Shown: one piece after another, positions 11,327 through 64,000 of the stretch
Layout: the number at the start of each line of letters is the position of its first letter
Numbering within the stretch: position 1 is the first letter of the stretch
Origin: Elusimicrobiota bacterium
Lineage (GTDB): Bacteria; Elusimicrobiota; Elusimicrobia; FEN-1173; JAKLIF01
NCBI GenBank assembly: GCA_022709755.1
Contig: JAKLIF010000001.1
Coordinates: 318,661 to 382,660, forward strand
Length of the DNA: 64,000 bases
Direction: 5' to 3'
The notes under the pieces: model-generated
The model's database searches: none
What the model was told of the DNA's origin: nothing
What the model saw: only the letters and a program-made list of their open reading frames with translations
Translations under genes and position numbers: made by a program

Positions 11327-11332
11327 CGACGA

Positions 11333-13108: not shown

Positions 13109-13120
13109 ATTGGAACGCCC

Positions 13121-14941: not shown

Positions 14942-14944
14942 GTC

Positions 14945-16714
14945 TCAGGGCCTCCTGTTCCGATAGACGGTGAGTGTCATCCCCATGTCGATCGGATAAT
15001 GGGCCAGTAAACGATAAGACTCACCCATTCTCCGGTGCGACAACGGGTCCCCGTTTTGTTCTAAATATTTCTCAAAACATCGCGCCCGACCCTCCCGATC
15101 GTCCATCTCCCGGCGCTCATCGCCCACGAACACGAAGAGATAATCATATGGCTTCCCCCCTCGATCCATGTCATTATCCACCAAATCCCGCATGGCTTTC
15201 TGCGATGCGAGCCCCGCCGGGGGATTCAAAATAACCCACGATATCCTCATGGAGCTGTAAAACGCCCTTGAATCCAAGCAAGAGATGTTCTTTTTGAGGT
15301 CGTACATCTTATCGCACTGCCCGCCGGATCCCATTTCCGCCCCCGCGACGAGGCAAACCGTGGATCCCCGTTTTGAGGCATCTTGTTCCGTTTGGATATA
15401 GTGCATGAGTTGAACCAAATCGAGCTCTTCTCCCTGCCCCCAATATTTGCGGACACGCTCGTATCGGGCCGAATAAACATCCTGTTGAGACAGCACCAAG
15501 ACAACAAGGATCCCGAAGACACAGGTCCCCATCCATCGGGGCATATATCGACTCATATCCCATAACAAGAGTGTCAACAAAATGGCTTCGAGCACATAGA
15601 ACATGGTGAAATTTCCCGCCGCCACACCCGACGTCATCAACATGACGGACAACAGGGCCCCCATGCAAAACAAAAGAAAGGCGACGACGGCGTCGACCTC
15701 TCTTTTTCCGTCGATCCGAGGTCTGATGTATTTCCGATGAAACCAGATATAGACCGGCAACAGAGCCGCCAACAGGGAATAGGTGGCCGGCCCCCCGTGC
15801 CTCTTCAGTCCTCGGAAACAGAACATCATCCCTCGATAGAAATCATGTCCATCACCCACGGCCAAGGGAGTCAACGGGAGCCCCCCATGGAATAAATTCA
15901 GGAACGAAAAAAACCATCTCGGCATGACGTTCATGTCCTTATAGAAGAGCATGAAAAACACGAGGAGGAATGCGATCGCAACGCGCCTCGTGTTCGGCCG
16001 CAAAAACAAATAAAAACCCAATATCCCGAAATAAAGATATCCCGAATAATGGGTTCGGACGGCCATAAAGAACAACATGATGAAAAAAAAGAAATCCCTC
16101 CACCGAAAACACCGGCACATCGAGATACACAGGTTCAAAGCCCACATCATGACGCAGGCCAAGGGAAGAAAACCGAAGTACAAACCAGCCATTTTCACGA
16201 CGTTGGGAAGGACCAATACAAGGAGTGTTCCCAGAAAAGCCGTCATTTCCATCTTGGTCTGCCGATAAAGAAAGACATACACGCCGAACGCCAACCCCAA
16301 TAAAGCCCAGACCATGCTCATTTTGTAGACGAACAGGGTCTTGCCAAAAAAGATGAAACAGAGGGCAAGGATCAGCGTATGAGGACTATATCCTCTTCTC
16401 CCATCGCCGAAACTGAACAACCGGCGCAACGACACCCGAACGTACCCAGGGGGGTTTTGGCTGAACAAAGCGCCCCCCCCCATGAACCCGGCGGCAGTCA
16501 ATATGTCGTAATCATGGTCCGGAGCCACGACGCGATCCGTGATGGCGAATCCATATTGGCCGAGAATGACATAGCCGGTGATGAACAAAAGGCAGAACCA
16601 ATGAAGAAGGACCGATTGATAGGGTTTATTGAATAATGTTGGTTTCATCATCAGACCGATGGGCACGGCGGGAGCCGGCATGGAGCGGAAAGGGGTCATG
16701 GGGCCTGCCATCAA
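14945..16714 (-). CDS. GT-C-like polytopic membrane protein, paralog 5 of 5
   Basis: 589-aa ORF; probable start MMKPTLFNKPYQSVLLHWFCLLF (~16651). Loop motif VAPDHDYDILTAAGFMGGG. Core VYKMSMVWALLGLAFGVYVFLYRQTKMEM...LYFGFLPLACVMMWA. Confidence 0.8.
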   Translation of the reverse strand: MMAGPMTPFRSMPAPAVPIGLMMKPTLFNKPYQSVLLHWFCLLFITGYVILGQYGFAITDRVVAPDHDYDILTAAGFMGGGALFSQNPPGYVRVSLRRLFSFGDGRRGYSPHTLILALCFIFFGKTLFVYKMSMVWALLGLAFGVYVFLYRQTKMEMTAFLGTLLVLVLPNVVKMAGLYFGFLPLACVMMWALNLCISMCRCFRWRDFFFFIMLFFMAVRTHYSGYLYFGILGFYLFLRPNTRRVAIAFLLVFFMLFYKDMNVMPRWFFSFLNLFHGGLPLTPLAVGDGHDFYRGMMFCFRGLKRHGGPATYSLLAALLPVYIWFHRKYIRPRIDGKREVDAVVAFLLFCMGALLSVMLMTSGVAAGNFTMFYVLEAILLTLLLWDMSRYMPRWMGTCVFGILVVLVLSQQDVYSARYERVRKYWGQGEELDLVQLMHYIQTEQDASKRGSTVCLVAGAEMGSGGQCDKMYDLKKNISCLDSRAFYSSMRISWVILNPPAGLASQKAMRDLVDNDMDRGGKPYDYLFVFVGDERREMDDREGRARCFEKYLEQNGDPLSHRRMGESYRLLAHYPIDMGMTLTVYRNRRP

Positions 16715-16785: not shown

Positions 16786-18696
16786 TCAGTCGACGAACCA
16801 GATCGTGATTCCCGCCCAATAAGTCCTCGCCACATTGGGGACCAACCCGGTGCTGACGGATTCGATGAAACGCTTGTTCGTTATATTATCCACACCGAGA
16901 TAAAGATCGGAACTCAGGATCTTCTTGACCAACCTCGCGTGCCAGAGGGTATAGGAGGGGAACCTCATCCCCTGTTCGTTATCATATTGAAAACGATGGT
17001 GCACGTATTGCACCGTATTGATCAACCTCCATTTTCTGGGGAGAGAAGTCGTCAGGCGATAGTTCGCCGTATGACGGGGCGTCATCTGGAGCGGGACGTA
17101 ACGATAGGACCCCATGGAGTTCCCGATCGCCCGCTGATAGGTGTAATTGATACTCTCCTCGAAGGGTCCCCAACGCGAATCCATCTCCGCCTCGCCCCCC
17201 GTCACCTCGGCCCGCGGAGCATTCTCATAAACCGCCGATTTCGCCGCAATCCGTTCCCTCAACTGAGAATGAAAACCCGTCAGTTTCAACGAGAATGTCT
17301 TTCCAGACCGCCATTCCGTCCCGGCGTCATAAGTCCAGGCGGTTTCGGGTCTCAAGAAGATATTCCCCAAAGTTCCGCTCGACGAGTAGAGTTCGGTGAA
17401 CGAGGGGGCGCGGAACGAGCGGGCGGCGCTGCATGAAAGCCTCCAATTCGGGGTGGCCCGAAAAACGATCGCCAATCGTGGATTCACCACGTTACCGAAC
17501 GCGCTGTGCTGGTCCAGTCGCACTGTGGGGATCAGATCGCATCGGTCTCCCTCCCAATGCTCCTGCACGGTGACGCCCCACGAGGCGGCATGATGCGGCG
17601 TTCCCCCCTCAATCAACTCTTCATCCCGTTCATAGGAACCCCCGACGCTGAAACCGCCGGGGAACTGAAGTCGCGTGGTGTTTCCGACGACCTGGTTGAC
17701 CCGTTCCATATCCGGATCAGCACCGCTGGACGGACGGGTCAGATATTTCTGTCTGGACCCATAGGACATCGTCTGCAATCCCGCGGGGGACTCCCCGAGG
17801 GGGAGCGACAAGGTGAGCCGACCCAGATCGGTCGTCTGTTCCACACGACGCCATCGGTTCGACGGCTCTTTTTCCCGCCGCCCATCCCACCGGTCAACGG
17901 GAATCGGGGTCCCCTGGGGATCTCCGGTCTCCTGACTCACGCGGGACAGGGCCAGGGAGATCCGCGTTCCGTTCTGGGCCGTGTATTCGCCATTCCCGGT
18001 CAGAGCCGCATTGTGCCCCTCGGAATTCGTCTGGTATCCACCCGTGTAATACTTGCTCCCCGTGATATAGGTATCAAACCCCTTGCCCCCCGTGCCCAGT
18101 TGAGCGTTATACATGCGGACCGGATAAGAACGTCTTTCCCCGCTGGAAATCGGATAAGAGCGGGTTTGATATCCGAAAGAAGAATGGGCCTTCTCGGCGG
18201 TGTGCCGTTTGGTGATGACATCGATGACCCCGCCCAAGGTGTTGGCTCCATGGACCATGGAGGACCCTCCTCGGACGACCTCAATCTTCTCGATGTTATC
18301 GACGGGGATCTGAGAGAGATCGACGAACTGGGAAGAGACCCCTCCCAACGGCTGGCCATCGATCAGGATCCGGCACGAGGCGGGCGACGGCAGTCCCCTC
18401 ATCCGGCATGTTGCCATGGAACCCAAGGCGCCCGTCTTCTGGACGTCGATCGAAGGCAATCGGTCCAGGACGTCGGCCAGAGATTGGCCTCCCGTGTTCC
18501 GAATCTCCTCTTTCCGGTAGACAGTGATATTGGTGGGTAAGCGGCGTGAATCTGTCTTTGACAGCGTATAGGACAAAAACTCCGAATCCGGATCGACCTT
18601 CTGCGCCGCCATCGACCGCGTCTTCGTAAAAAAGAATGTGATCGTCGCCAATGCGACGAAGGTTCTTAGCCGCATCTCAAATGAGACAAAAAACAT
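16786..18696 (-). CDS. TonB-dependent outer-membrane receptor
   Basis: Signal peptide (MRLRTFVALATITFFFT). Plug-domain motifs ...ITVYRKEEIRNTGGQSLADVLDRLPSIDV... and IEKIEVVRGGSSMVHGANTLGGVIDVITK. Long beta-barrel region rich in alternating aromatic residues. C-terminus ...TYWAGITIWFVD. Confidence 0.88.
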   Translation of the reverse strand: MFFVSFEMRLRTFVALATITFFFTKTRSMAAQKVDPDSEFLSYTLSKTDSRRLPTNITVYRKEEIRNTGGQSLADVLDRLPSIDVQKTGALGSMATCRMRGLPSPASCRILIDGQPLGGVSSQFVDLSQIPVDNIEKIEVVRGGSSMVHGANTLGGVIDVITKRHTAEKAHSSFGYQTRSYPISSGERRSYPVRMYNAQLGTGGKGFDTYITGSKYYTGGYQTNSEGHNAALTGNGEYTAQNGTRISLALSRVSQETGDPQGTPIPVDRWDGRREKEPSNRWRRVEQTTDLGRLTLSLPLGESPAGLQTMSYGSRQKYLTRPSSGADPDMERVNQVVGNTTRLQFPGGFSVGGSYERDEELIEGGTPHHAASWGVTVQEHWEGDRCDLIPTVRLDQHSAFGNVVNPRLAIVFRATPNWRLSCSAARSFRAPSFTELYSSSGTLGNIFLRPETAWTYDAGTEWRSGKTFSLKLTGFHSQLRERIAAKSAVYENAPRAEVTGGEAEMDSRWGPFEESINYTYQRAIGNSMGSYRYVPLQMTPRHTANYRLTTSLPRKWRLINTVQYVHHRFQYDNEQGMRFPSYTLWHARLVKKILSSDLYLGVDNITNKRFIESVSTGLVPNVARTYWAGITIWFVD

Positions 18697-48314: not shown

Positions 48315-48812
48315 TCAGTCCTTTTTCCCTCTCTTGCCCAGTTCTTTATCCAGATACAAAAGACCGCCCGAACTGTCACCGATCATCTTCAACTTCTCAA
48401 CGATTTCGGTCGCATTGGCCTCTTCTTCCACTTGTTCCGTCACAAACCAGTGGAGAAAAATCTCCGCCGCGGAGTCCTTTTCTTTCCTTGCCAGTTCCAG
48501 CAACCCGTTGATGCGTCCCGTGATATGGATCTCATGTTTATGTGCATCCTCGAACGCGGCGAGAGGCGATTTCCAATCGGTTTTCGGCGCGGAAATATCC
48601 GCCAATTGAACCCGACCTCCACGCTCATGGATGAATTCAAAAAACTTCATGGCGTGATCCCGCTCTTCTTTCGTCTGAACTCTCATCCAATTGGCCATCC
48701 CTTTGAGATTTTTGGACTCGAAGTACGCCGCCATGGAGAGATAGATATAGGCGGAAGCCAATTCCTCGTTGATCTGCTTGTTTAATTCATCCTGAATTCT
48801 TTTATTCAACAT
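48315..48812 (-). CDS. Ferritin (bacterial non-haem ferritin-like diiron protein)
   Basis: Start MLNKRIQDELNKQINEELASAYIYLSMAAYFE...EERDHAMKFFEFI...; ferroxidase E/H ligand pattern. Confidence 0.85.
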   Translation of the reverse strand: MLNKRIQDELNKQINEELASAYIYLSMAAYFESKNLKGMANWMRVQTKEERDHAMKFFEFIHERGGRVQLADISAPKTDWKSPLAAFEDAHKHEIHITGRINGLLELARKEKDSAAEIFLHWFVTEQVEEEANATEIVEKLKMIGDSSGGLLYLDKELGKRGKKD

Positions 48813-48870
48813 GGTTTGACACCTCACTCTATGATTTTATTTTCGTCAAAAACCACTGCCGATGTCTATC

Positions 48871-51087
<2,217 letters not shown>

Positions 51088-51110
51088 TCATTCTAAAGAT
51101 TTCGATTTTT

Positions 51111-51128
51111 GGCACTTTTTACAGTGCC
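51111..51128. promoter_or_regulatory. Perfect 6-6-6 palindrome GGCACT-TTTTAC-AGTGCC, 40-55 bp upstream of the katG start; candidate operator
   Basis: Located in the AT-rich katG upstream region, which also carries TTATTAATGA and TATATTAGAG (a -10-like element). Confidence 0.3.
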
Positions 51129-51312
51129 CCTCTAATATAACCCGCTTATTAATGACGTTGAACTGCTTTTTTATTCCGACAGGCACATCGATCTGTTCAT
51201 ACGATTTATTCTCAAAATCAATTATTGCGCCGTATTGCAAACACCTCATGAAGGGTTCCATCGCGTCGTTTCTTCCCTCCCGACACGGGCAAATAAGATT
51301 CCCCCCGCTTTC

Positions 51313-52791
51313 CTAGGACATGACGGCAAGAATTTCCCCCAAAGAGACAAAAGCGAATCCCGTGACGCGGTCTGACATGCCGTAGGGCAGGACCAATTGT
51401 TCCCCGTGCACGAGTGCGCCGCAGGTGTAGAGAACGTTGGGCACGTACCCTTCCCGCTCGATGCCTTCCGGGCGCATCAACGGTTCGCTCAGGCGGCCGA
51501 TCACCTTGGAAGGATCCTTCCGATCCAAAAGGAACGCGCCGAGGCAATATTTCCGCATGGGGCCCACTCCATGGCTCAAAATCAGCCAGCCCTCCTCCGT
51601 TTCGATGGGACAACCGCAATTGCCCGTCTTGATGAACTCCCAAGGATAGGCGGGCGAGAGGAGAAGACTCGCTTCGTTCCAAAAATGCACGTTGTCGGAA
51701 TACATCAGAAAAATATTCTCCCCATCCTGCCGGGAAAGCATGGCGAAGCGCCCGTCGATCTTGCGCGGGAAGAGAGCCATCCCCTTATTCTGCACGCCCG
51801 GACCGTTCAATGTGGCGAACTTGAAGTGACGGAAATCCTCCGTCTGAAAGAGCTGGGGAAGGACATTGCGCCCGTCGTAGGCGGTATAAGTGGCGTAATA
51901 GGTCGTTTTTCCGTCGTCATCCCGATGTGCCGTCAAACGAACGTCCTCCAGGCCGTTGCTCTGAATGGGAGTGACGGGAAAGATGATCCTTTCGGAAAGG
52001 TCCTGATCCGGCGGGAACCGTATATCGTAGTTGGACTGAGCCAAAAGCCAAAGGCCCTTGGCGGCGTTGTTGTCGCCGATCCGTTGGCCGGGCGCCGTTT
52101 CGCGGAGGACCTCCTTCAGTTCATTCTTGAGCTCGCTGATCGTGAAAAAATCCGCCAGCCGACCCAGCACGCGATCCGTCCATTCACCGGCCAACCCCAT
52201 TTCCGCGACTTTCCGCCGGAAGAGGTCTTTATGATAGGTCGAGTTTTCAACCAGAACGGGCTCGGCCAAAAATCGGGACGCCGGATCCACGGCAATGCCG
52301 TTGTGGGCGTTGATGACGCCGCTACGGAAAGAGATTGAAGAGATGTGGCCTTCGCCCGTCGAGCGGAGACTCAAGAGGAAGCGAAGGCTCCCCTTCGGCA
52401 ACTTCGATTGATCCGGATGGGGAAGGATGGAGGGATTGAAGAGTGCCGCGGATTCAGGCGAATATTCAAACATGAAGTAAGAACCGATCAAGAGCTTTCG
52501 CGCCTCCGAGAGGTCGTGGCCCGGGGGCAAGAAATGCTCAAGATAATGGAATCTTTTCAGGAGACGCTCGGTCAGCCAACGATGGCGGGAAGAAAACTCC
52601 GCAAGCGTTTGGTCCAGAACGATCCGGACATCCTTCTCGGAAAGCGCCAAGACCCGGCGAATGATCTTCACGTGTTCTTCATCGGAAGAAAAACCCAGAG
52701 GCCGCAGGACCACCCGGGTTTGATCCGGCGAGAGCCGGACTTCCGTCCGGCGGACATTTATGTTTTTGAGCGGACCGGAATGTTGATCCAT
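51313..52791 (-). CDS. GH130-family (DUF377) glycoside phosphorylase-like protein with ~150-aa N-terminal extension
   Basis: C-terminal ~340 aa match the GH130 pattern: EDVRLTAHRDDDGKTTYYATYTAYDG, NKGMALFPRKIDGRFAM, GNCGCPIETEEGWLILSHGVG...YCLGAFLLDRKDPSKVIGR, GYVPNVLYTCGALV. Confidence 0.78.
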   Translation of the reverse strand: MDQHSGPLKNINVRRTEVRLSPDQTRVVLRPLGFSSDEEHVKIIRRVLALSEKDVRIVLDQTLAEFSSRHRWLTERLLKRFHYLEHFLPPGHDLSEARKLLIGSYFMFEYSPESAALFNPSILPHPDQSKLPKGSLRFLLSLRSTGEGHISSISFRSGVINAHNGIAVDPASRFLAEPVLVENSTYHKDLFRRKVAEMGLAGEWTDRVLGRLADFFTISELKNELKEVLRETAPGQRIGDNNAAKGLWLLAQSNYDIRFPPDQDLSERIIFPVTPIQSNGLEDVRLTAHRDDDGKTTYYATYTAYDGRNVLPQLFQTEDFRHFKFATLNGPGVQNKGMALFPRKIDGRFAMLSRQDGENIFLMYSDNVHFWNEASLLLSPAYPWEFIKTGNCGCPIETEEGWLILSHGVGPMRKYCLGAFLLDRKDPSKVIGRLSEPLMRPEGIEREGYVPNVLYTCGALVHGEQLVLPYGMSDRVTGFAFVSLGEILAVMS

Positions 52792-52792
52792 T

Positions 52793-55078
52793 TCAATGTG
52801 GGTCGGCGGAATTTTTAAAAGCGGCCTTTTCGTTGTGCACCTGCTGCATCTCCACCAACGAAATGAGGAACGCCAGGGTGGACTCGGCCCCCTGGTTTTG
52901 GTTCACGCGGTCCACGTGCAACCCATCCCGGCAACCGCCGGTATTGGCATCGTAGAGGAACAGACCTAGATCATTGCGGCCCAAAAACCAGTCGAAGGCG
53001 CGGCGCGCTTGGCCGAACCAGTAATCGTCCGAAGTGCAGCGATAGGCCTCCAAACAGGCGGACACCATGGTCTGGGCTTCGATGGGCTGCTGGTCAAAAT
53101 TGGCCCTCTCTCCGCCACGCTTAAAAAAACCATTGGAACCGACGGGCCGAAGATAGCCTCCCTCGGCGGTCTGGATTTTTGTGAGCCAGCGCAACGTTTT
53201 TAATCCTGTCTCAAGCACGTCCGCGCGGGAGGTCCAGCGCCCGCTTAAAATCAGCGCGTGGCAAAGCACGGCGTTCATATAGGTCACCGAATCTTCAAAC
53301 CAGGGCCACTCCGGCGTGGCGGTGCGGGAGTAGAGCCCCATCAGCAAATCGGTCAGTGCTTCACGGGCTTGGTTCACCTGCCGGTCTCCATTCAACCGCC
53401 GCAAATATTCATGGGTGCCGATCAAAGCCAGGGCCCAGGCCCGAGGCGAACTGAAACCCGTGACCGGAGACAGCGCCTGGGCGAAAATCTGCCCGGCCAT
53501 GGTTTGAAAACCCGGGTTCTTGGATCGGCCCACGCAGGTCCCCAGGGCCAACAGGGCGCGGCCGCAACAGTCCTCCGATATGGTCTCGTCTTTCCAGGAT
53601 CGATCGAATTTCATGAAATTGCGGAACCGGTTCAACGAAGGGTCGAAAGCATATTGAAGGAAAGCGGCGTAGACAGTGGCGACGTTTATCAGATGGGGCG
53701 AGTCTTCCCCCAGTTCTTCCAGCAGCACCGTCAACGCCAGGGCCCGGGCGTTGTCGTCGGTACAATAGCCGGTGGAAAAGTTCGGCACAGCCACAATGGC
53801 GTGCTGAAAAATGCCGGTCGAATCGGTCATGCGGTAAAGGTGATCGAGCCTCATATCCGGAAGCTCGGTGAGCTGTTTATCCAGAGTCTTCATCGTGAAA
53901 AGCTTCCGGGTCAGGCCGGCACGCTGGTTCCGCGCGTTCTCAAAAGCCTGCATGTAGGAACAGGCCACGTTCCCCCACACCATGTCCCGTCCCATTTTGT
54001 AGGCGTTCTTCCGCATGATGTTCCGACGTACGTCATCCGTCAACAACCCTATCACCGCCCGGGCAATGGCGTCCGGGTCGCCGAAGGGGACCAATACGCC
54101 TCGGTTGTCGGCCAAAAGCTCTTGAGCATACCAGTAGGGCGTGGACACCACGGCTTTACCCGCTCCGAAACAATAGGCCAGGGTTCCCGAAGTGATTTGT
54201 GTCTCGTTCAAATAGGGGGTAATGTAGATATCCGCGGCGCCGATAAATTCCTTCAATTCAGCCAGCTCTACGAAACGATTGTAAAAGATTACGTTCTTCT
54301 GAACGCCGTTTTTTTCGGCCAACAATTCCAAACCCAAACGATACGATTCCCCTTGTTCACGCAGAAGGTTCGGGTGTGTGGCGCCCAAAACGATGTAAAC
54401 AACATCGGGGTGCGTCGCCACGATCTTGGGCAGGGCATTGAGCACATTTTCAATACCCTTGTTCGGGGAGAGCAAGCCGAAGGTCAGAAGAACCTGTTTG
54501 CCCTCCGCGCCGAAAAGATCTTTATAAAAATTGGAGTCCACGAAAGAGGTTTCCGGAATGCCGTGGGGGATGATGTCGATCTTATCCGCAGGCGCCTTAT
54601 ACACATCCTGCAGGAACCCCGCACCTTTTTGCGACATCACCACCAGCCGGGTGGAGAGGTGGATCAGTTCTTTCATCACGCGCTTTTGATCGGCGTTGGG
54701 ATCCTTCAGCACGGTGTGCAACGTGGTCACGACGGGAATATCCACTTCCCGTAGCAGGGCCAGGAGGTGCCCGCCGGCCACCCCCCCGTAAATGCCGTAT
54801 TCGTGTTGGACGCAAACCACATCCACATCGTTGATGCCCAAAAAATCCGCGGCACGGCGGTAGGAAGACAGGTTCTGCTCCTCAATCTCAAAGCGCACAT
54901 CCGACGGATAGTCGTATCCACCCTCCACGTCGTTGACGGGCACGGCAAAACACTGTACTTGGGGAAACTGAGTTGCCACGGAGGTGCACAGATCCGTGGT
55001 AAAGGTGGCAATACCGCAGAGGCGAGGAAGATAGTTCCCCACAAAAGCGACCTTTCGGATTTCGGAACGGGACATCAT
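52793..55078 (-). CDS. Two-domain protein: N-terminal GT4 glycosyltransferase (~400 aa) fused to a C-terminal (alpha/alpha)6-barrel glycoside-hydrolase-like domain (~350 aa)
   Basis: GT4 part: KVAFVGNYLPRLCGIATFTTDL...VVCVQHEYGIYGG..., GATHPN..., YCFGAGKAVVSTPYWYAQELLADNRGVLVPFGD (E-x7-E region). C-terminal part, ...IFQHAIVAVPNFSTGYCTDDNARALALTVLLEE... to ...ESTLAFLISLVEM, is helical-repeat, six-hairpin-like. Confidence 0.75.
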   Translation of the reverse strand: MMSRSEIRKVAFVGNYLPRLCGIATFTTDLCTSVATQFPQVQCFAVPVNDVEGGYDYPSDVRFEIEEQNLSSYRRAADFLGINDVDVVCVQHEYGIYGGVAGGHLLALLREVDIPVVTTLHTVLKDPNADQKRVMKELIHLSTRLVVMSQKGAGFLQDVYKAPADKIDIIPHGIPETSFVDSNFYKDLFGAEGKQVLLTFGLLSPNKGIENVLNALPKIVATHPDVVYIVLGATHPNLLREQGESYRLGLELLAEKNGVQKNVIFYNRFVELAELKEFIGAADIYITPYLNETQITSGTLAYCFGAGKAVVSTPYWYAQELLADNRGVLVPFGDPDAIARAVIGLLTDDVRRNIMRKNAYKMGRDMVWGNVACSYMQAFENARNQRAGLTRKLFTMKTLDKQLTELPDMRLDHLYRMTDSTGIFQHAIVAVPNFSTGYCTDDNARALALTVLLEELGEDSPHLINVATVYAAFLQYAFDPSLNRFRNFMKFDRSWKDETISEDCCGRALLALGTCVGRSKNPGFQTMAGQIFAQALSPVTGFSSPRAWALALIGTHEYLRRLNGDRQVNQAREALTDLLMGLYSRTATPEWPWFEDSVTYMNAVLCHALILSGRWTSRADVLETGLKTLRWLTKIQTAEGGYLRPVGSNGFFKRGGERANFDQQPIEAQTMVSACLEAYRCTSDDYWFGQARRAFDWFLGRNDLGLFLYDANTGGCRDGLHVDRVNQNQGAESTLAFLISLVEMQQVHNEKAAFKNSADPH

Positions 55079-57063: not shown

Positions 57064-58995
57064 CTATCGGGTCCCCCTTTCTATTTCGGACAATCTTTTC
57101 ACGTAATGAGATGACTGTTTCATAAAAGCGTCTTTCCTGGCGAGAGGCACATTCTTTTCCGGGGGCAGTTTTAAAGTCATGAAGTTCACATAACTCCCGT
57201 TCTTTCTCACGCGGAAATCCAGGTGGGGGCCCGTAGACCAACCCGTCGAGCCCACGTAACCGATGACCTGCCCCTGACGGACCTTGCTGCCTCGTTGGAG
57301 TCCTTTCGCATATCGGGACAGGTGGCCATAACAGGTGGTATAGGATGAGTTATGCCGGACCTCGATGTAGTTCCCGTAGGCCCCTTTCCTCCCCCGATAG
57401 ATGACTGTGCCGTCACCCACGCTCACAACGGGAGTGCCCGTCGGGGCCGCATAATCGATGGCCAGATGGGGACGGAAATAACGGAGGATGGGATGGAAGC
57501 GCCGACGGCTGAACCGGGACGTTATCCGGCGAAAAGCCAAGGGGGCTTTCAAGAAAGCCCGGCGGTGGGCTTCCCCTTTGGTGTCGTAATAATCGCCTTC
57601 GAAATGGATGCCGACCTGTTTTCCGGTCTGGCGGCCCTCGTAAGAAGCGGCCCGGATGCGCCGTTCCACGATCCGTCCGGTGGGTGTCAGATGGTCTTCC
57701 CACAAGAGAGCGAACCGGTCGCCCGCCCGGGGGTCCACGTTGAAATCGATCTCCCAGGCGAACACGTCGGCAAAAGCCGCGATCACGTCCGGGTCCACCC
57801 CTTGAGTCACCATGGAATTCCAGAGGGAATCGCTGAGCGTGCCGGCGGCCGTTTTTTCCTTGACCGTGAGATCCACCGGACGCGACTGGGCCATATAGGC
57901 GCCGGTCGTGGAGAGAGACACGATGAAATCTTTCACGCCCTGAGTGACGATGAACTCCAAGACTTCCCCCCCGGTGGACTGGATGATCCGGTAATGATCG
58001 TCGGCGCGGAGCCGCCGGAGGTTCAGAATGCGTGACAGTTCCCGGGTTAAGACGGCCTGCTCGTCCCTCTTCACCGAGACGCCGTCCATCACAGCCGCCA
58101 GCGTGCCCCCGCGGGCGAACGTGCCCGTGGTCACCACGATCTGGGACGAGTCGTAGCCTTCGAACTCGACGGCGGAGTCATCCCCCCGGAAAGACCGCCA
58201 GAGCCCGATCGCCGCCAACAAAACGACGAGGAGCGCCGCGGCCAGACCGATCTTGGCCTTCAAAGTCCAGAATCCGGGGGGAGTTTCAGGTCCGTTCATG
58301 TTTTTCAATATAGCATGCTTATTCCAATAACACCATCCCCGAGAAGCAACCATCACTTCCTGCTGGGCGCTACAGATCGTCTTCTCCGTGAACCCACCGG
58401 CATCCAAGAAACGGCGGACCTCACCCATCTGACGATGGAATGAATCATGGCTTTTTCCCTCCAAGCTATGACACCGATTGACCATCTCCATCCCTCTGTC
58501 TGTAAAATCACTCAAGATAATCTTGCCGTGATCCTTCAACACGCGGATCAACTCTTGAGCCACAGCCCGGGGATGTTCCAAGTGGTGGATCACATTCACA
58601 GACACCACGACATCAATCGATCCGGTCGGGAATGGCAGGCGTTCGGCGTCCGCCAGGATGAAATCGGCCCGATGGTCACACCCGTAATAGGCCAAGTTCA
58701 TCCGTGCGATGGATTGATCGACGGCATTCACATCCACGCTGGAAAAACGGTGCCCGTTCCGGGCCAGAGTGAGAGAAAAATGTCCCTTCCCGGTCCCGAT
58801 CTCGACGAGAACCCCACTCAACGGGAGGCATTGCCTGTAGATGAAATCCCGCTCCGCGATGAAATCACACCCGTTGCCGTCGTAAAATTCGAGCCGTTGG
58901 AGGAATGCCGCGTGGTTATCCGACACACCGGCGGCGAGAAACCGGGCCGGTGGAGCCGCCAACCACGGATGTTTTCGTTGAATTTCGGAAACCAC
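57064..58995 (-). CDS. Fusion protein: N-terminal class I SAM-dependent methyltransferase, central TM helix, C-terminal M23/LytM peptidase domain with an HxH->HxD variant
   Basis: MTase motifs VLVEIGTGKGHFSLTLARNG (motif I), IDVVVSVNVIHHLEHP (II), LKDHGKIILSDF (III). TM helix KIGLAAALLVVLLAAIGLW. M23 motifs HLAIDYAAPTGTPV (HxxxD) and GYVGSTGWSTGPHLDFRV (expected HLHF). A single uninterrupted 643-codon ORF. Confidence 0.7.
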   Translation of the reverse strand: MVSEIQRKHPWLAAPPARFLAAGVSDNHAAFLQRLEFYDGNGCDFIAERDFIYRQCLPLSGVLVEIGTGKGHFSLTLARNGHRFSSVDVNAVDQSIARMNLAYYGCDHRADFILADAERLPFPTGSIDVVVSVNVIHHLEHPRAVAQELIRVLKDHGKIILSDFTDRGMEMVNRCHSLEGKSHDSFHRQMGEVRRFLDAGGFTEKTICSAQQEVMVASRGWCYWNKHAILKNMNGPETPPGFWTLKAKIGLAAALLVVLLAAIGLWRSFRGDDSAVEFEGYDSSQIVVTTGTFARGGTLAAVMDGVSVKRDEQAVLTRELSRILNLRRLRADDHYRIIQSTGGEVLEFIVTQGVKDFIVSLSTTGAYMAQSRPVDLTVKEKTAAGTLSDSLWNSMVTQGVDPDVIAAFADVFAWEIDFNVDPRAGDRFALLWEDHLTPTGRIVERRIRAASYEGRQTGKQVGIHFEGDYYDTKGEAHRRAFLKAPLAFRRITSRFSRRRFHPILRYFRPHLAIDYAAPTGTPVVSVGDGTVIYRGRKGAYGNYIEVRHNSSYTTCYGHLSRYAKGLQRGSKVRQGQVIGYVGSTGWSTGPHLDFRVRKNGSYVNFMTLKLPPEKNVPLARKDAFMKQSSHYVKRLSEIERGTR

Positions 58996-59001
58996 GTTAT
59001 T

Positions 59002-59841
59002 TCAGAAGGAATAAACGGCGCCGGCGAGACCCTGAACACAGCGCGTGCCGAAACGTTCTTTTAAGAACGCCGTTCCGGAATCACCGGTACAGTGACAGGG
59101 GATGATTAACGACGGTGCAACCGCGTCGAGCGCCTGTGCCGCGACAGACAACTGTTCGTGAGACGCCCGGGACAAGTGCAACCCGCCGACGATCGCCTTG
59201 ACCGGGCTCTTATTCGTCAATTCCGAAATATATCCCAACGTGTTCTCCAGCCCAGAATGGGCGCAACCGGTCACGACCACTATCCCATCCGCCATGTCGA
59301 TCCACATCGCCTGGTCGTCGACGATGAGATCCGGCCGGATACCGGCTTCGTCCAGAAACAGGAAGGGATCCATCACATGGTGGGCCAAACGGCGCGGGAT
59401 GGGACCCGTCACCCACACGCCGGACCGAACCAGGACCGGCTCCCTGCACCAGACTACCTGCCCGGACGATCGATGAACGGCACCCCGCGACGCCGGCGGC
59501 ATCCCGATGGATCTCATCGATCCTCGCCGGGAACTGAAACGATCAATCAGCGCGTCCGGATGAAGATGAAGAGGAAGAACCCCACGCGTCTCCACCAGCC
59601 CCGCCAACCCTCCGGAATGATCCGAGTGCCCATGGCTGATGACAGCCTGGGACACCTTTTTCAGATCCAATCCCAGGCGAGGCGCATTGTTGACCAGGGC
59701 CGGACCCGCCCCTGTATCGAACAGGATGACGTCATCGTCCGCCTCGATCCAAAGGGACAATCCATGCTCTGTCCAGATCGCCCCAGAGACGGCATTATTG
59801 TCCGTCAGGACGCGGATGGTCAGATTCTTCACACCATCCAT
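59002..59841 (-). CDS. MBL-fold metallo-hydrolase
   Basis: HGHSDHSGG zinc-binding motif, ...DTGAGPALV..., ...VVTGCAHSG.... Start probably MDGVKNLTIRV (the longer ORF overlaps the NifX-like gene). Confidence 0.75.
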   Translation of the reverse strand: MDGVKNLTIRVLTDNNAVSGAIWTEHGLSLWIEADDDVILFDTGAGPALVNNAPRLGLDLKKVSQAVISHGHSDHSGGLAGLVETRGVLPLHLHPDALIDRFSSRRGSMRSIGMPPASRGAVHRSSGQVVWCREPVLVRSGVWVTGPIPRRLAHHVMDPFLFLDEAGIRPDLIVDDQAMWIDMADGIVVVTGCAHSGLENTLGYISELTNKSPVKAIVGGLHLSRASHEQLSVAAQALDAVAPSLIIPCHCTGDSGTAFLKERFGTRCVQGLAGAVYSF

Positions 59842-59863
59842 ATTGGCCTCTCTCCCCGAGTTC

Positions 59864-60226
59864 TCAATGGGAACATTCATGACCCTCCACGTGGTCACAA
59901 ACATTCAGCCCGGACTGGAGCGACCCGTTCAGGTAACACCGGACAATTTCCTCGGGAGTGTCCGACGGAGCGCCGAGAACCACTCGAATGGAATATTGAG
60001 CGAACAGTTCCTGGGCGTGACCGCCCATCCCCCCGGCAATAATCACATTCGCCCCCTGTTGAGCCAACCATGGCGGCAAGAGGCCCGGTTGGTGAGGAGG
60101 CGCCTTGATGTCGTCCCGCTTGAGTATCTTCTTCGCTGAAGTATCCACATCCAGGATTGCGAAAGATTCGCAATGCCCGAAATGGGCGGACAATTTTCCG
60201 GCAACGATAGGAATTGCTATTTTCAT
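59864..60226 (-). CDS. NifX/NafY/NifB-C-like (dinitrogenase Fe-Mo cofactor-binding domain) small protein
   Basis: MKIAIPIVAGKLSAHFGHCESFAILDVD...ANVIIAGGMGGHAQELFAQYSIRVV; 120 aa, typical of this domain family. Confidence 0.7.
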   Translation of the reverse strand: MKIAIPIVAGKLSAHFGHCESFAILDVDTSAKKILKRDDIKAPPHQPGLLPPWLAQQGANVIIAGGMGGHAQELFAQYSIRVVLGAPSDTPEEIVRCYLNGSLQSGLNVCDHVEGHECSH

Positions 60227-60321
60227 TGACTCCTCCTTTTGATTTCAAAACTCCCCTGCTCTAATGATACGTCCCCACAAACAAACCTTTTCTCTTTCCC
60301 TGACCGGGCCCGAGAGGACCC

Positions 60322-61590
60322 CTAAACGGACCCCCACATCTTTTTCAACGCGACCACCAGCGAATCGATGTCCGACCGATCGTTATAGACGTAGAAACTG
60401 ACCCGACAAGTGCCGGGAACCCCATAACGCGCCATCAACAATGGGGAACAGTGGTTTCCCACGCGAATGGCAATTCCTTCCCGATCCGCCATGGCACCGA
60501 CATCGCGGGAATCGACACCCTGGAGATTGAACGACACCACCCCTCCCCTGAGAGGGGTCTCGCTGACACCATACAACGAGATTCCGGGGACTTCGCCGAG
60601 AGCATGAAGCGCATACTGTGTCATCTCGATCTCATGCCGACGAACGTTCTCCATTCCTAAGGTCTCCAGATAATCGAGCGCCGCCCCAAAAGCCACGATG
60701 CCGGCGATGTTCGGTGTGCCCGCTTCGTATTTATGAGGAAGAACGTTCCAGGTCGCCCGGTCAGGCCATACATCCTTGATCATGTCCCCTCCGCCAAGGA
60801 ATGGAGGCATGGACTCCAATATCTCCCGCCGGCCCCACAGAACCCCAACACCCGTGGGTCCCAGCATCTTATGAGCCGAGAAGGAGAGAAAATCGCACCC
60901 GAGATCCTTCACATCCACCGGAAAGTGGGGCACCGACTGCGCTCCGTCCACCATGCAGAGCGCGCCGACGGCGTGAGCCCTCCGCGCGATTTCCCTGACC
61001 GGGTTGATCGTGCCGACAGCATTCGACATCTGAGTGACCGACACCAACCGCGTCCTCTCGGACAGCAACCGGTCGATATTCGACAGATCCAGCGTTTCCG
61101 TTTTAAGATCGACCGGGATAAAACGAAGCCGGGCCTCCGTTCTCTGGGCCAGGATCTGCCAGGGGATCAGATTGGCATTGTGTTCCATCTCGGAGATGAG
61201 GATCTCATGGCCCGGTTTCAGATTCGCAAGACCCCAGGCGTATGAAACCAGGTTGAACCCCTCCGTGGCGTTCCGAGTAAATATGATTTCGGCGGAATCG
61301 TCGACCCCGATGAAACGCGCCACCTTCCGCCGCGACGATTCCATCAGATCCGTGGCCGTCTTGGAAAGTTCATAGGGGCCCCGATGGACGTTCGCATAAC
61401 TCTCCCGATAAAAATCATCGGCCGCGCGAATGACACACGATGGTTTCTGCGTGGAAGAAGCGTTATCCAGATAGACCAACCGTTTTCCCTGGACCGGCCG
61501 GCCCAGGATGGGGAAATCACGGCGGACCGATTCAGTATCGATGGAGGGGGCTTCCCTCTCGGGGGCCGTCATCGCCGGGTCTCCGCGCAC
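60322..61590 (-). CDS. sufS: Cysteine desulfurase (SufS/class V aminotransferase family)
   Basis: ...YLDNASSTQKP...; PLP-Lys motif SFSAHKMLGPTGVGVL; active-site GNHCSPLL (Cys persulfide loop). 422 aa. Confidence 0.9.
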   Translation of the reverse strand: MRGDPAMTAPEREAPSIDTESVRRDFPILGRPVQGKRLVYLDNASSTQKPSCVIRAADDFYRESYANVHRGPYELSKTATDLMESSRRKVARFIGVDDSAEIIFTRNATEGFNLVSYAWGLANLKPGHEILISEMEHNANLIPWQILAQRTEARLRFIPVDLKTETLDLSNIDRLLSERTRLVSVTQMSNAVGTINPVREIARRAHAVGALCMVDGAQSVPHFPVDVKDLGCDFLSFSAHKMLGPTGVGVLWGRREILESMPPFLGGGDMIKDVWPDRATWNVLPHKYEAGTPNIAGIVAFGAALDYLETLGMENVRRHEIEMTQYALHALGEVPGISLYGVSETPLRGGVVSFNLQGVDSRDVGAMADREGIAIRVGNHCSPLLMARYGVPGTCRVSFYVYNDRSDIDSLVVALKKMWGSV

Positions 61591-62849
61591 AGACCCATCA
61601 CGTCCTGCGCGATTTTTCTGAACACTCGCGCGGTTTTCCCGTCGGAGCCGTTCGACACGAACGGGCGGCCCGCATCGCCCGATTCACCGATGGCAGGATC
61701 GACGGGGATGGATCCGAGGAACGGGACCTTCATATCGCGAGCCATCCTCTCTCCTCCCCCGACCTTGAACAAAGACGCCTCGCCCCCGCAATGGGGACAC
61801 ACATAACCGCTCATATTCTCGATCACCCCCAACACCGGCACGTTCAGTCTCCGGCAGAAGGTGACCGATTTTCGCACGTCCACCGTAGAGACACGCTGGG
61901 GGGTTGTGACGATCAACGCCCCGTCCACGTTCCCGATCAACTGGCAGACAGACAGCGGCTCATCTCCGGTCCCAGGGGGAGAATCCACGATCAGAAAATC
62001 GAGGTCTCCCCAAGCCGCGTCCGTCAGAAACTGCTTGATCGCTCCCATCTTTTTCGGGCCTCTCCAGATGACGGCTTCATCCGGATCGGGCAGAAAAAAT
62101 CCAATGGACAACACTTTGATCCCGCCCGACAATACCGGCACCAGTTCTCCCCCCTCAAAACGGACCGTCTTTCCGTCGAGACCCATCAATGTCGGCACGC
62201 TCGGCCCATGGATATCAGCGTCGATCAATCCGACTCTCTTCCCGGACTGCGCCAGGGCGACAGCCAGATTGACGGCCACCGTGCTCTTTCCCACCCCGCC
62301 CTTTCCAGACAAGACGACGATCTTACGGCCGATCCGGTCCAGTCGGGCCTGCACCCGGCAACGATCCCTGAAATCCTCTTCACTTTCACCAGGCCGCCGG
62401 GAGCCGGCCCCATCTCCGGTCCGTTTCTCGGGATCCCTTCCATCCGTCTCCCCGTTTCGTCGGTAATCCTCGCAGGCCGCCTTCAAGGTGTCGGACGCCA
62501 GGAGCGCGCAATGTTCGGAATCCTGTGGCAAACCGCCGAGGGCTTCCAAAATATCGCGCTGACTGACTTGGGCCGCCGCCGGAATCATTTTCCCTTCTGC
62601 CAAACACGTGGCCATGCTCCCGCTGGCATAAGAGGGCCCGCATCCCGTGGTGGTGAAGTGGGCCTGCATCACTTTCTGATCCTCGCAGAACAGCCACATT
62701 TCCATGGTGTCCCCGCACGGCCCCGTGATCTTCGCATGACCGTTATAGTTCTTCAGCCTCCCGTTGTTCCGCGGGTTCTGAACATGGTCCATCAACGTCT
62801 TCGACACCTTGAATGTATCCATCATCTCCTCCTTGGAAAAATCACCCAC
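61569..62849 (-). CDS. Fusion of an IscU/NifU-like Fe-S scaffold domain (N-terminal) with an Mrp/ApbC/NBP35-type P-loop Fe-S carrier ATPase
   Basis: N-terminal: GPCGDTMEMWL...TGCGPSYASGSMATCLAEG...DSEHCALLASDTLKAA (three scaffold Cys). C-terminal: VLSGKGGVGKSTVAVNLA (deviant Walker A) and CPHCG (CxxC). Confidence 0.8.
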   Translation of the reverse strand: MGDFSKEEMMDTFKVSKTLMDHVQNPRNNGRLKNYNGHAKITGPCGDTMEMWLFCEDQKVMQAHFTTTGCGPSYASGSMATCLAEGKMIPAAAQVSQRDILEALGGLPQDSEHCALLASDTLKAACEDYRRNGETDGRDPEKRTGDGAGSRRPGESEEDFRDRCRVQARLDRIGRKIVVLSGKGGVGKSTVAVNLAVALAQSGKRVGLIDADIHGPSVPTLMGLDGKTVRFEGGELVPVLSGGIKVLSIGFFLPDPDEAVIWRGPKKMGAIKQFLTDAAWGDLDFLIVDSPPGTGDEPLSVCQLIGNVDGALIVTTPQRVSTVDVRKSVTFCRRLNVPVLGVIENMSGYVCPHCGGEASLFKVGGGERMARDMKVPFLGSIPVDPAIGESGDAGRPFVSNGSDGKTARVFRKIAQDVMGLCAETRR

Positions 62850-62887
62850 TCGCCCACAGACCTCAGGACCTCTCCTCCCGAATATGT

Positions 62888-63208
62888 CTAGAAGGAAACG
62901 ACCTTATCATGCGTCTTTATGATGTCGTATAAATCCTTCATCGTCGAAAGAGGACAAATCTCGGTGCCCGGCATATTGCGGAACTTCAGGCAGGTCCCGC
63001 AAGCCAATATTTTTCCTCCATTCCGATGGAATTCCATCATTTGTCCCTTGATGTCATATTTATCCGTGCCGATGTTCTCGCATTCCACTCCCTTGGCCAC
63101 AAGGAAAACAGAGACCTCATCACCCTGATTCTTTGAGAAGTTTGACAGACGAAGAGCATTCCAAACCGCCTCCGCATCCGCCGAATATAAAATAATCCCT
63201 AATTTCAT
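62888..63208 (-). CDS. DsrE/DsrF-like sulfur-relay family small protein
   Basis: 106 aa; MKLGIILYSAD...KILACGTCL (conserved Cys); size and motif fit the DsrE/DsrF-like family. Confidence 0.6.
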   Translation of the reverse strand: MKLGIILYSADAEAVWNALRLSNFSKNQGDEVSVFLVAKGVECENIGTDKYDIKGQMMEFHRNGGKILACGTCLKFRNMPGTEICPLSTMKDLYDIIKTHDKVVSF

Positions 63209-63223
63209 GTGACACCTCCCCTT

Positions 63224-64000
63224 TTATAATTCAAGATTCTTCCAGAGATTCCGAATATCGGCGGCGGCAGGGGATTCCCTTTCAACGACAGACCTCCCCT
63301 CTCTCTGGGCCTGAGTAACGGACCGATCATATCTCACCCGACCCACCGGATGGACGTCCAAAGATCTGGCCCTTTCCTCCAAACGTTCCGTCAGAGAAGG
63401 ATTCAGATCCCATCGATTCACGCATATCATCGAACCAATCCCGAAATGAGCGGTCAGGTTGGCGGCCCTCTCGAAATCATGCAATCCGGATACGGTCGGT
63501 TCGGCGACAAAAAGAGCGCCAGAAACCCCTCCCAAAGACGCTATCACAGGACATCCGATCCCCGGAGGACCATCCACAAGGACCAGATCCAAATTCCGCT
63601 CTTTGGCAATCCGGCGAGCTTCTCTCTTGACTAAACCGACGAGTTTCCCAGAATTTTCACCGGACGGGGCAAGCCGGGCATGAACCAACGGCCCGGCGCG
63701 GGTCTCGAATTCGAACCATTCTCCCGTCAAGCGTTCCTGAAGTTTGACGGCCTTCGAGGGGCAAACCTCATAGCAAAAGCCACATCCCTCACACGCCAAC
63801 GGATCCACTTTGTATTTGGGACGAGGTCGGTCTCCCTCCCGATGAACAGCCCCGAAACGGCAAACAGATTCACACCTCCCGCAACCAACGCACAAATCGT
63901 CCGTTACACATGCGATCTCTCCGGAATAGAATGATTCCCTCCTCCTGACCGATACGTCGAATAAAAGGGGCAGATTGGAACCATCCACGTCGGTATCCGC
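63224..64000 (-). CDS. MinD/ParA-superfamily P-loop ATPase with inserted 2x[4Fe-4S] ferredoxin domain (CooC-like), N-terminus beyond window end
   Basis: CVGCGRCESVCRFGAV...CEGCGFCYEVCP (two CxxCxxCxxxCP motifs), then ...LVLVDGPPGIGCPVIAS.... No Walker A seen, so the true start lies beyond 64000. Confidence 0.75.
   Translation of the reverse strand, partial: ADTDVDGSNLPLLFDVSVRRRESFYSGEIACVTDDLCVGCGRCESVCRFGAVHREGDRPRPKYKVDPLACEGCGFCYEVCPSKAVKLQERLTGEWFEFETRAGPLVHARLAPSGENSGKLVGLVKREARRIAKERNLDLVLVDGPPGIGCPVIASLGGVSGALFVAEPTVSGLHDFERAANLTAHFGIGSMICVNRWDLNPSLTERLEERARSLDVHPVGRVRYDRSVTQAQREGRSVVERESPAAADIRNLWKNLEL

Follow-up and report, generated by a model that had tools for sequence, protein, structure and literature searches.

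An orange-protein-type operon of an Elusimicrobiota bacterium with an IscU-Mrp fusion protein and a neighbouring cysteine desulfurase

The DNA described here is a stretch of 64,000 nucleotides from an Elusimicrobiota bacterium (positions 318,661 to 382,660 of contig JAKLIF010000001.1, assembly GCA_022709755.1), referred to below as 'the window'; its subject is a group of iron-sulfur (Fe-S) genes at the far end of that window, built around a protein in which an IscU-type scaffold is fused to an Mrp-type carrier ATPase. An earlier, sequence-only reading had listed six consecutive minus-strand genes at positions 59002-64000, encoding an MBL-fold hydrolase, a NifX/NafY-like protein, a SufS cysteine desulfurase, the fusion, a DsrE-like protein and a ferredoxin-domain MinD-like ATPase ('Fd-MinD'). 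Genes were identified by Pfam and NCBIfam profile searches of the translated open reading frames (ORFs) of the window, of which the 37 longest were scanned, and all six are confirmed as described by strong profile matches (PF01592, PF10609, PF02579 and PF02635 among them). The upstream flank was read from the source contig (ERZ761563 NODE_58, 211 kb; locus L001), where its ORFs were also read and profile-scanned. The visible DNA amounts to about 73 kb (the 64-kb window and 8.8 kb of upstream flank) of a contig that is at least 211 kb long, and 537 kb in another assembly.

The six genes stand, and the cluster is larger than had been thought. The operon begins about 2 kb past the window end, with the six genes forming its 3' part: on the source contig the order runs from a sigma70-like promoter through a DUF134 regulator, a first Nitro_FeMo-Co protein gene (Di-Nase A), Fd-MinD 2, Fd-MinD 1, DsrE, IscU-Mrp, SufS, a second Nitro_FeMo-Co gene (Di-Nase B) and MBL, to a gene for a methyltransferase joined to an M23 peptidase. 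DUF134, Di-Nase A and the second Fd-MinD gene are thus added upstream and the methyltransferase downstream. The region is best explained as the distal part of an operon of about 7-9 kb in a metagenome-assembled genome (MAG) of an anaerobic member of the Elusimicrobiota.

The fusion gene (61569-62825, minus strand) encodes 418 amino acids (aa) that match both NifU_N and Mrp profiles. Its probable start is the ATGATG at 62825, which lies behind a AAGGAGGAG ribosome-binding site and yields the 418-aa database protein P0001 of an Elusimicrobiota MAG; on the longest ORF, of 426 aa, PF01592 covers residues 16-132 and PF10609 residues 173-417. (Starts later than those of the longest ORFs are likely also for SufS, at 416 aa, and for the MBL protein, at 292 aa.) Residues of the fusion are numbered here on the 418-aa protein, and their conservation is taken from an alignment of 30 homologues. 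The scaffold domain (aa 1-125; 62451-62825, minus strand; PF01592, E 1e-27, 96.8 bits against a cut-off of 22) has the three cysteines on which the proposed scaffold-carrier fusion depended: C37, C62 and C106 are invariant, as is H105, with D39 nearly so, and all five align in register with the cluster ligands of the closest solved structures, the archaeal IscU proteins 7c8m (Methanothrix) and 4eb5_C (Archaeoglobus), matched at E 1e-25 to 1e-26.

The kind of scaffold can be narrowed further. The HscA-binding LPPVK motif is not in the domain, which reads LPQDSE at that place, and the domain falls below the NCBIfam cut-offs for TIGR01999 (70 against 192 bits), TIGR03419 (105 against 188) and TIGR02000 (67 against 273), as well as for the SufU model TIGR01994 (44.6 against 92.5). 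The spacing of its second and third cysteines is 44 residues, the third ligand is preceded by histidine (His-Cys, not Lys-Cys) and there is no long SufU insertion; an Elusimicrobiota SufU in which both the insertion and the KC motif are found is about 30% identical to the domain. By these alignments the domain is a true IscU-type scaffold, nearest to archaeal IscU and not a SufU, and it is assigned to a divergent U-type clade because LPPVK is absent and every NCBIfam IscU, NifU and SufU cut-off is missed.

The carrier domain (aa 161-418; 61569-62345, minus strand; PF10609, E 1.5e-100, 336 bits) has the deviant Walker A motif GKGGVGKST and a CxxC motif (CPHC, C343/C346), both invariant in the homologue alignment. 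Its relatives of known structure include Cfd1 (6g2g, E 9e-67) and 3kb1, and the CxxC aligns in Cfd1, 3kb1 and 8zkc. The domain thus shares with the Mrp/NBP35 family (ApbC/Mrp, Nbp35-Cfd1, NUBPL/Ind1, HCF101) the P-loop fold, the dimer-bridging CxxC and, by membership, a presumed ATP-dependent handling of Fe-S clusters. Within that family it is of the 'MrpORP' type, matching positions 1-250 of the 365-position NCBIfam MrpORP model at 371 bits, as against 243 bits for ApbC. In the AlphaFold (AF2) model of the fusion the two domains are confident, with a predicted local distance difference score (pLDDT) of about 90 or more for the scaffold, and they are joined by a low-confidence linker (aa 126-160; 62346-62450, minus strand; columns 130-165 of the homologue alignment) in which residues 127-139 fall below 50; the linker is therefore predicted to be flexible. 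Most homologues carry a cysteine-rich motif there, TCxTCxDxSCSA, and the window protein has no cysteine in the linker at all. The motif, which P0002 and a small number of other homologues have lost along with the window protein, is reminiscent of the N-terminal site of Nbp35 and MrpORP, and could form an extra, Nbp35-like Fe-S site.

The accessory domains known for Mrp/NBP35 proteins are DUF59, DUF971, the ferredoxin-like N-terminus of Nbp35 and Di-Nase. The IscU domain is a further one, and it is not confined to this organism: among the matches listed from a large protein database (90%-identity clusters), all 120 contain both PF01592 and PF10609, at 56-63% identity, and the lineages represented include Elusimicrobiota, Acidobacteriota, Sumerlaeota, TA06 and others. 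At 50% identity, about 20 representatives span the junction between the IscU domain and the P-loop. There are also triple IscU-Mrp-Di-Nase proteins of about 555 aa, which carry the NCBI name 'MrpORP', and annotation pipelines already label the domains of the fusion. A 2019 survey of 17,511 Mrp/NBP35 proteins recorded an association with NifU_N once, in a supplementary table and undiscussed, and our literature search found no paper describing an IscU/NifU-Mrp fusion or DUF134/PF02579 neighbourhoods. The IscU-MrpORP architecture is thus common but, so far as we found, undescribed; the form equipped with SufS and DsrE is rare.

The Di-Nase B gene (59864-60226, minus strand; 120 aa; PF02579, E 1e-20) is what the sequence-only reading had called a NifX/NafY-like protein. 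The domain is indeed PF02579, but its best match is the C-terminal domain of MrpORP (positions 265-365 of the NCBIfam model, 126 bits) and no nif genes were found among the ORFs scanned in the window and flank. It is 55-71% identical to the C-terminal domain, or to the adjacent gene, in related loci. Since the Mrp domain of the fusion matches positions 1-250 of the model and the separate 120-aa protein positions 265-365, the two together are read as a split MrpORP, and by these matches the cluster is an orange protein (ORP) complex operon in which the C-terminal Di-Nase B is detached from the Mrp domain. The curated rule for a single-polypeptide MrpORP (NF041136, an equivalog) is missed, at 371 against 450 bits, with the Di-Nase part standing as a separate gene after SufS.

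The ORP complex, which is conserved among many anaerobes, is known from Desulfovibrio, where Orp3 and Orp4 are MinD-like proteins with ferredoxin motifs, Orp5 is a small [2Fe-2S] protein, Orp8 an orange protein of the Di-Nase type and Orp9 is MrpORP (PMC6345978). In D. vulgaris Hildenborough the genes are arranged as orp3-orp4-orp5, orpR and orp7-orp8-orp9, with MrpORP (DVU2109; Dde_3202) as Orp9. For the D. vulgaris/D. alaskensis homologues, MrpORP has been shown to bind Fe-S clusters and, in vitro, to pass them on to Orp3-Orp4-Orp8 (PMC6345978). The maturation of the ORP metalloproteins was an open question in 2019 (PMC6345978), and the role of the complex, called unclear since 2011, is still described in that way (PMC8359166). 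The gene set that marks an ORP cluster is found at the present locus, where two paralogous Fd-MinD ATPases lie beside Di-Nase A, Di-Nase B and Mrp, in an order conserved in related loci.

Fd-MinD 1 (Orp3/Orp4-like) runs on the minus strand from 63224 to the window end, with the full gene extending to about 64126 and matching Fer4 and ParA/CbiA profiles; its P-loop and start lie beyond the window, about 126 nt past position 64000. On the source contig it encodes a 300-aa MinD/CbiA P-loop ATPase (L001 8700-9602) into which a 2x[4Fe-4S] ferredoxin domain is inserted. The next gene upstream, already beyond the window, is its paralogue Fd-MinD 2, which is intact (298 aa, 26% identical to Fd-MinD 1), and each of the two has CbiA and two Fer4 motifs by Pfam. 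Farther upstream come Di-Nase A (110 aa) and the DUF134 gene, for a putative DNA-binding protein. Public annotation places antisense or partial ORFs in this region (L001 6850-7398 minus, 7771-8328 minus and 8357-8722 plus); these miscalled ORFs mask the intact DUF134 (L001 6795-7286) and Fd-MinD 2 (L001 7826-8722) genes.

The joint presence of a NifX-like protein and an Fd-MinD ATPase had been taken as a pointer to a client enzyme yet to be identified. That argument falls away, as the pairing is a hallmark of ORP clusters, and the Mrp carrier of such clusters loads the ORP proteins themselves in vitro (PMC6345978). A CooC-like assignment of the Fd-MinD gene was likewise set aside, on the grounds that no carbon monoxide dehydrogenase gene lies in the window or upstream flank and that the ferredoxin insert is of ORP type; membership of the CooC family was not tested directly.

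Regulation of the operon appears to differ from that of the Desulfovibrio genes. A strong sigma70-like promoter, matching 11 of 12 consensus positions, lies immediately 5' of the DUF134 gene. A sigma54 promoter (-24/-12 pattern) was sought and was not found above chance, and no sigma54 activator lies within 10 kb on either side of the cluster; sigma54 activators are present in some related loci. An Rfam scan of the 21-kb source locus returned no riboswitch, and thus no molybdenum cofactor (Moco) or other metal-sensing RNA at the locus. Just upstream of the operon (L001 2241-6639) lie genes for Fur, an FmdE-domain protein, a ZnuA/ABC-3 metal importer and a 387-aa protein without a Pfam match; Feo or other metal uptake genes also flank ORP locus L003.

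How regular these associations are was judged from 83 other loci, comprising 80 metagenome loci fetched with an alignment of the IscU domain and loci L002-L004; the counts accordingly describe IscU-containing ORP clusters rather than ORP clusters in general. At least one ORP partner gene is present in 70 of the 83. Upstream counts were made over the 45 loci with at least 3 kb of upstream sequence: Fd-MinD 1 precedes IscU in 37 of them (directly in 28) and Fd-MinD 2 in 36. Downstream counts were made over 40 loci, each having 3 kb or more on that side: IscU has Mrp fused to it or as its neighbour in 24, Di-Nase B follows in 22 and an MBL homologue lies within 4 kb in 18. The recurring order is Di-Nase A, Fd-MinD 2, Fd-MinD 1, IscU(-Mrp(-Di-Nase B)), MBL. 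With the window's own locus included (84 loci), 50 have the IscU module as a protein by itself, 29 have it joined to Mrp and 5 have it within a triple IscU-Mrp-Di-Nase protein. Because of this recurring order and these partner genes, the IscU module, free or fused, is taken on gene-neighbourhood grounds to be a common part of ORP clusters, which no paper that we found describes. When the full-length fusion alignment was used as the query, with the search patterns falling in the P-loop, the 80 loci obtained were nearly all plain Mrp genes, and only L024 and L056 among them showed an unfused IscU gene in the vicinity of Mrp, Di-Nase and Fd-MinD genes.

The synteny asked for by the sequence-only reading is therefore present in part: the ORP core is conserved, but the six genes are no conserved unit, for SufS is missing from all the other 83 loci, even with the threshold relaxed to E 1e-3, and DsrE turns up in one (L108). 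The downstream side, in contrast to these two genes, belongs to the conserved neighbourhood. The MBL gene (59002-59880, minus strand; 292 aa; PF00753, E 6e-13) encodes a member of the TM1679 family (PDB 3h3e, E 1.6e-32) and is a conserved downstream neighbour in ORP/IscU loci. The class I S-adenosylmethionine (SAM) methyltransferase domain at 58351-58995 (minus strand; Pfam and NCBIfam), which forms the first 215 or so residues of a 643-aa protein, belongs to the conserved neighbourhood too: its homologues were found by tblastn in 11 ORP/IscU loci at 35-46% identity (E 4e-25 or better), and sit between the two Fd-MinD genes wherever a contig carries both. The genes downstream of MBL follow at spacings of 6, 2 and 10 nt and encode the methyltransferase-M23 fusion, a GNAT protein and a PLD-family protein.

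SufS (60322-61572, minus strand; 416 aa) is a type II cysteine desulfurase, scoring 558.8 bits on TIGR01979 against a cut-off of 475.1 and only 103-109 bits on the IscS models, with their cut-offs of 548-643. Alignment with Synechocystis SufS (1t3i, E 7e-129) places both its pyridoxal phosphate (PLP) lysine, in SAHKM, and its catalytic cysteine, in GNHCSP. The stop codon of the fusion gene and the start codon of SufS overlap in the sequence ATGA. The nearest relatives, 60-62% identical, are from Elusimicrobiota, and the three contexts read, out of three, are canonical suf operons (Rrf2, SufC, SufB, SufD, Rieske, SufS, SufU, SufT). Here, then, a SufS of the SufU-associated clade is placed between the Mrp and Di-Nase B genes, a pair fused or adjacent in relatives, and is translationally coupled to the IscU-Mrp gene. 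An assembly chimera or rearrangement artefact as the reason for its presence is unlikely, given the overlap with the Mrp gene and the occurrence of the same proteins on 3-4 contigs of up to 537 kb (a contig being counted if it encodes any member of the 90%-identity protein cluster in question).

A housekeeping interpretation has to be weighed at this point, in which SufS and IscU-Mrp would be the main, minimal Fe-S machinery of the cell (a SUF/MIS hybrid with its own carrier that serves many apo-proteins), lying beside the ORP genes by chance or for the sake of shared regulation. It would account for the absence of sufBCD, sufU and sufT from the 64-kb window and the 8.8 kb upstream: tblastn with Elusimicrobiota SufC, SufB, SufD, Rieske and SufT returned nothing in the window, and the upstream flank holds none of them. 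At window 48315-55078, downstream of the cluster, a GT4-GH130 gene pair is followed by genes for a KatG catalase-peroxidase and ferritin; the same pair in a related Elusimicrobiota contig (L167 1-9185) is followed by a complete suf operon, one of the three read for context above, in which SufB has an intein. That contrast would suit such an interpretation, as would the finding that D. alaskensis MrpORP also loads aconitase in vitro (PMC6345978), which indicates that Mrp carriers are not strictly target-specific. Yet the clade of the IscU domain lies almost always within ORP synteny, the Mrp domain is of the MrpORP and not the ApbC type, and 83 of 83 related loci have no neighbouring desulfurase, which means that their hosts must make Fe-S clusters by other systems. 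That suf genes are missing, moreover, applies to the roughly 73 kb of visible DNA, part of a contig whose length is 211 kb or more (537 kb in the other assembly). We regard a housekeeping role as unlikely, although it is the rival that we would take most seriously.

The DsrE-family gene (62888-63208, minus strand; 106 aa; PF02635, E 2e-9, 38 bits against a cut-off of 22.7) encodes a protein with invariant C70 and C73 (ACGTC), C85 (CPLST) and R77 in family alignments. Its AF2 model has a pLDDT of 83 and its best PDB fold matches, at TM 0.5-0.63, are in the DsrE/DsrF family. The family is a tightly conserved one of 106 aa, the listed members being 61-69% identical to the window protein and assigned by annotation to seven phyla or more. 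Proteins of the DsrE/TusD family normally work in a DsrEFH or TusBCD heteromer; here no gene for a DsrF/H or TusB/C partner is present, and the protein is regarded as a candidate persulfide carrier with a putative role in sulfur relay. A weak match to the C-terminal domain of YedF, a protein of selenium metabolism, was also recorded (E 9e-6, far below the cut-off).

Together, SufS and DsrE could in principle be a sulfur or selenium trafficking pair for a target other than an Fe-S protein (thio-modification, for example) that landed in an ORP operon by rearrangement and has no functional tie to IscU-Mrp. DsrE/TusD-type proteins relay persulfide to tRNA thiolation and in sulfur oxidation, the genomic settings of DsrE homologues differ from one case to another, the two genes are additions to the cluster that lack synteny elsewhere, and the YedF match, weak as it is, points the same way. 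The arrangement of the genes does not favour the idea: the two are not adjacent but flank the IscU-Mrp gene, the overlap of the SufS start with the fusion stop argues for expression coupled with the scaffold, and no thiolation enzyme, TusA or rhodanese gene is found nearby. A trafficking pair of this kind is thus judged very improbable.

The reading that we favour, and hold to be probable although well short of certain, is an ORP-type system with its own Fe-S assembly line, in which clusters would pass from SufS and the IscU domain through the Mrp domain to the ORP Fe-S proteins. SufS, depending on PLP, would take sulfur from L-cysteine as a persulfide; the sulfur would reach the cysteines of the IscU domain either directly or by way of the DsrE-family protein; and a [2Fe-2S] or [4Fe-4S] cluster would be assembled there. 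The flexible linker would then let the cluster reach the Mrp CxxC site within the same polypeptide or dimer, from which the Mrp domain would hand it to the two Fd-MinD ATPases and the Di-Nase proteins. For this organism every transfer step, and the part given to the DsrE-family protein, is proposed from domain identity, ligand conservation, the fusion and the gene overlap; by analogy, experimental support extends to the last transfer step only, and there for the Desulfovibrio homologues alone. A dedicated role in Fe-S maturation, as first suggested for these genes, accordingly remains the best reading of them.

Several points weigh against this assembly line or limit how far it can be generalized. 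SufS and DsrE are absent from nearly all other ORP loci, and therefore are not needed for ORP function generally. SufU is the usual suf-operon partner of this SufS clade, and the scaffold is only about 30% identical to one such SufU, so that a productive coupling of SufS with the IscU domain is putative. DsrE homologues elsewhere stand alone, near Hdr-like genes or, in one lineage, in an ArsR-DsrE-methyltransferase arrangement, and contexts so varied give no functional clue. The equation of the Fd-MinD pair with Orp3 and Orp4 (DVU2103/2104) is drawn from architecture and synteny. Accessory genes that are common in ORP loci elsewhere (radical SAM, Zn_ribbon_8, DUF5320, CGGC and a sigma54 activator) are missing here. 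The mechanism itself, for this organism as for any IscU-Mrp fusion, is built from sequence.

Among the missing accessory genes is that for the Zn_ribbon_8 small protein, common in related loci, of which no homologue is found at the present locus; that it corresponds to Orp5 is only an assumption. Other IscU-containing ORP loci (L002-L004 and many of L086-L165) often encode a COG0731-like radical SAM protein, Zn_ribbon_8 and DUF5320 proteins, a CGGC-domain protein, peroxiredoxins, TrmO-like proteins and a PAS-sigma54 activator, a set that resembles a cofactor-biosynthesis neighbourhood.

Such a resemblance bears on a further alternative, in which the genes would assemble a complex or heterometal cluster by analogy with NifS, NifU, NifH and NifX (and perhaps NifB): a Mo/W-Cu-S cluster, for instance, as on the orange protein of D. 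gigas, or a cofactor for a client encoded elsewhere. PF02579 Di-Nase proteins are cofactor carriers in nitrogenase maturation, and homologues of Orp8 bind a [S2MoS2CuS2MoS2] cluster (PMC6345978). Genes for radical SAM, methyltransferase and small cysteine-rich proteins are also part of some two thirds of the larger related loci (radical SAM in 23 of 36), which gives them the look of a cofactor-biosynthesis cluster, and the FmdE-domain gene, Fur and the metal ABC importer lie just upstream of the window's operon. Against this, the window locus itself has no radical SAM gene, the window holds no candidate client enzyme, and neither a molybdate transporter nor a Moco riboswitch was found, the importer being of the ZnuA/ABC-3 type; the clusters seen on MrpORP in the only biochemistry available are of the ordinary [4Fe-4S] and [3Fe-4S] types. 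The ORFs scanned in the window and flank included no nif genes, and the remark that the organism looks non-diazotrophic from the window (none among the 37 longest ORFs) holds good. We consider assembly of a heterometal cluster unlikely.

The nitrogenase comparison is nevertheless instructive as analogy and not as membership. The locus shares with nitrogenase cofactor maturation (NifS, NifU, NifH, NifX/NafY, NifB) a desulfurase, a U-type scaffold, SIMIBI-class Fe-S ATPases and PF02579 proteins, but nifHDK, nifEN and nifB are absent and the ATPases are MinD-like with ferredoxin inserts rather than NifH. The likeness to the ORP cluster of D. vulgaris is closer: both have the Fd-MinD pair, the small Di-Nase proteins and an MrpORP-type Mrp with deviant Walker A and CxxC motifs in one cluster, a Di-Nase module that corresponds to the C-terminal MrpORP domain, and a host from an anaerobe-type lineage. 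Unlike the characterised MrpORP, the window's Mrp has an IscU scaffold at its N-terminus and no N-terminal or linker cysteine motif; its Di-Nase module has a gene of its own, on the far side of SufS from Mrp; SufS, DsrE, MBL and methyltransferase genes are present; and, in place of sigma54 and OrpR, regulation appears to involve DUF134 and a sigma70-like promoter.

Two Fe-S assembly systems offer further parallels. As in MIS (MisS-MisU) and the archaeal IscS-IscU pair (A. fulgidus, 4eb5), the scaffold is nearest to the archaeal or anaerobe IscU/MisU type, there is a single desulfurase, and no chaperone or ferredoxin genes lie nearby; unlike in MIS, the desulfurase is a type II SufS and not an IscS-like MisS, and a carrier is fused to the scaffold, whereas MIS has been described as having no carrier (PMC13066941). 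As in the SufS-SufU pairs of Bacillus and Elusimicrobiota, a gene for a partner with the NifU_N fold overlaps or abuts that of SufS. The partner here, by contrast, is IscU-type, with His-Cys and an IscU-like spacing of the second and third cysteines, and SufBCD, SufT and Rieske genes are absent from the visible DNA.

Elsewhere in the window, two further features may be recorded. The 643-aa protein encoded at 57064-58995 (minus strand), whose gene begins 6 nt after the end of the MBL gene, joins the SAM methyltransferase domain to an M23 peptidoglycan DD-endopeptidase of MepM/ShyC type (57064-58350) with a Csd3_N2 domain. A part in cell division has been proposed for the ORP complex, in the light of which an M23 peptidase beside ORP genes is a curious link. 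Far from the cluster, a TonB-dependent receptor gene (16786-18696) is followed directly by five tandem paralogues of about 590-610 aa (7753-16714, minus strand), with 28-35% identity among themselves; Pfam scans of three of them (7753-9537, 9488-11326 and 11333-13108) gave no match.

At its most ambitious, the comparison with nitrogenase maturation would make ORP-type clusters a widespread, anaerobe-specific assembly line for a complex metal-sulfur cofactor, following the same logic, with the window's version, alone in having gained a cysteine desulfurase and a DsrE sulfur carrier, as the most self-contained; this is speculative, and we doubt it. The likeness would lie in the U-type scaffold, the Mrp carrier, the pair of NifH-class Fe-S ATPases and the NifX-like carriers, to which a radical SAM enzyme and a methyltransferase are often added. 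Were it true, a version with its own desulfurase and DsrE would be the best handle for reconstitution and for finding what the ORP complex does. If the more modest reading of a dedicated Fe-S assembly line is correct, a U-type scaffold that is regular in ORP clusters and often fused to MrpORP would suggest a direct hand-off from scaffold to carrier, which would bear on the long debate as to whether Mrp/NBP35 proteins are scaffolds or carriers. The combination of a SufS from a SufU-dependent clade with an IscU-type domain would be a natural experiment in the specificity of desulfurases for their acceptors. With SufS, finally, one short operon would encode every step from cysteine to the ORP Fe-S proteins, and a reconstitution of the pathway in vitro could be designed around it.

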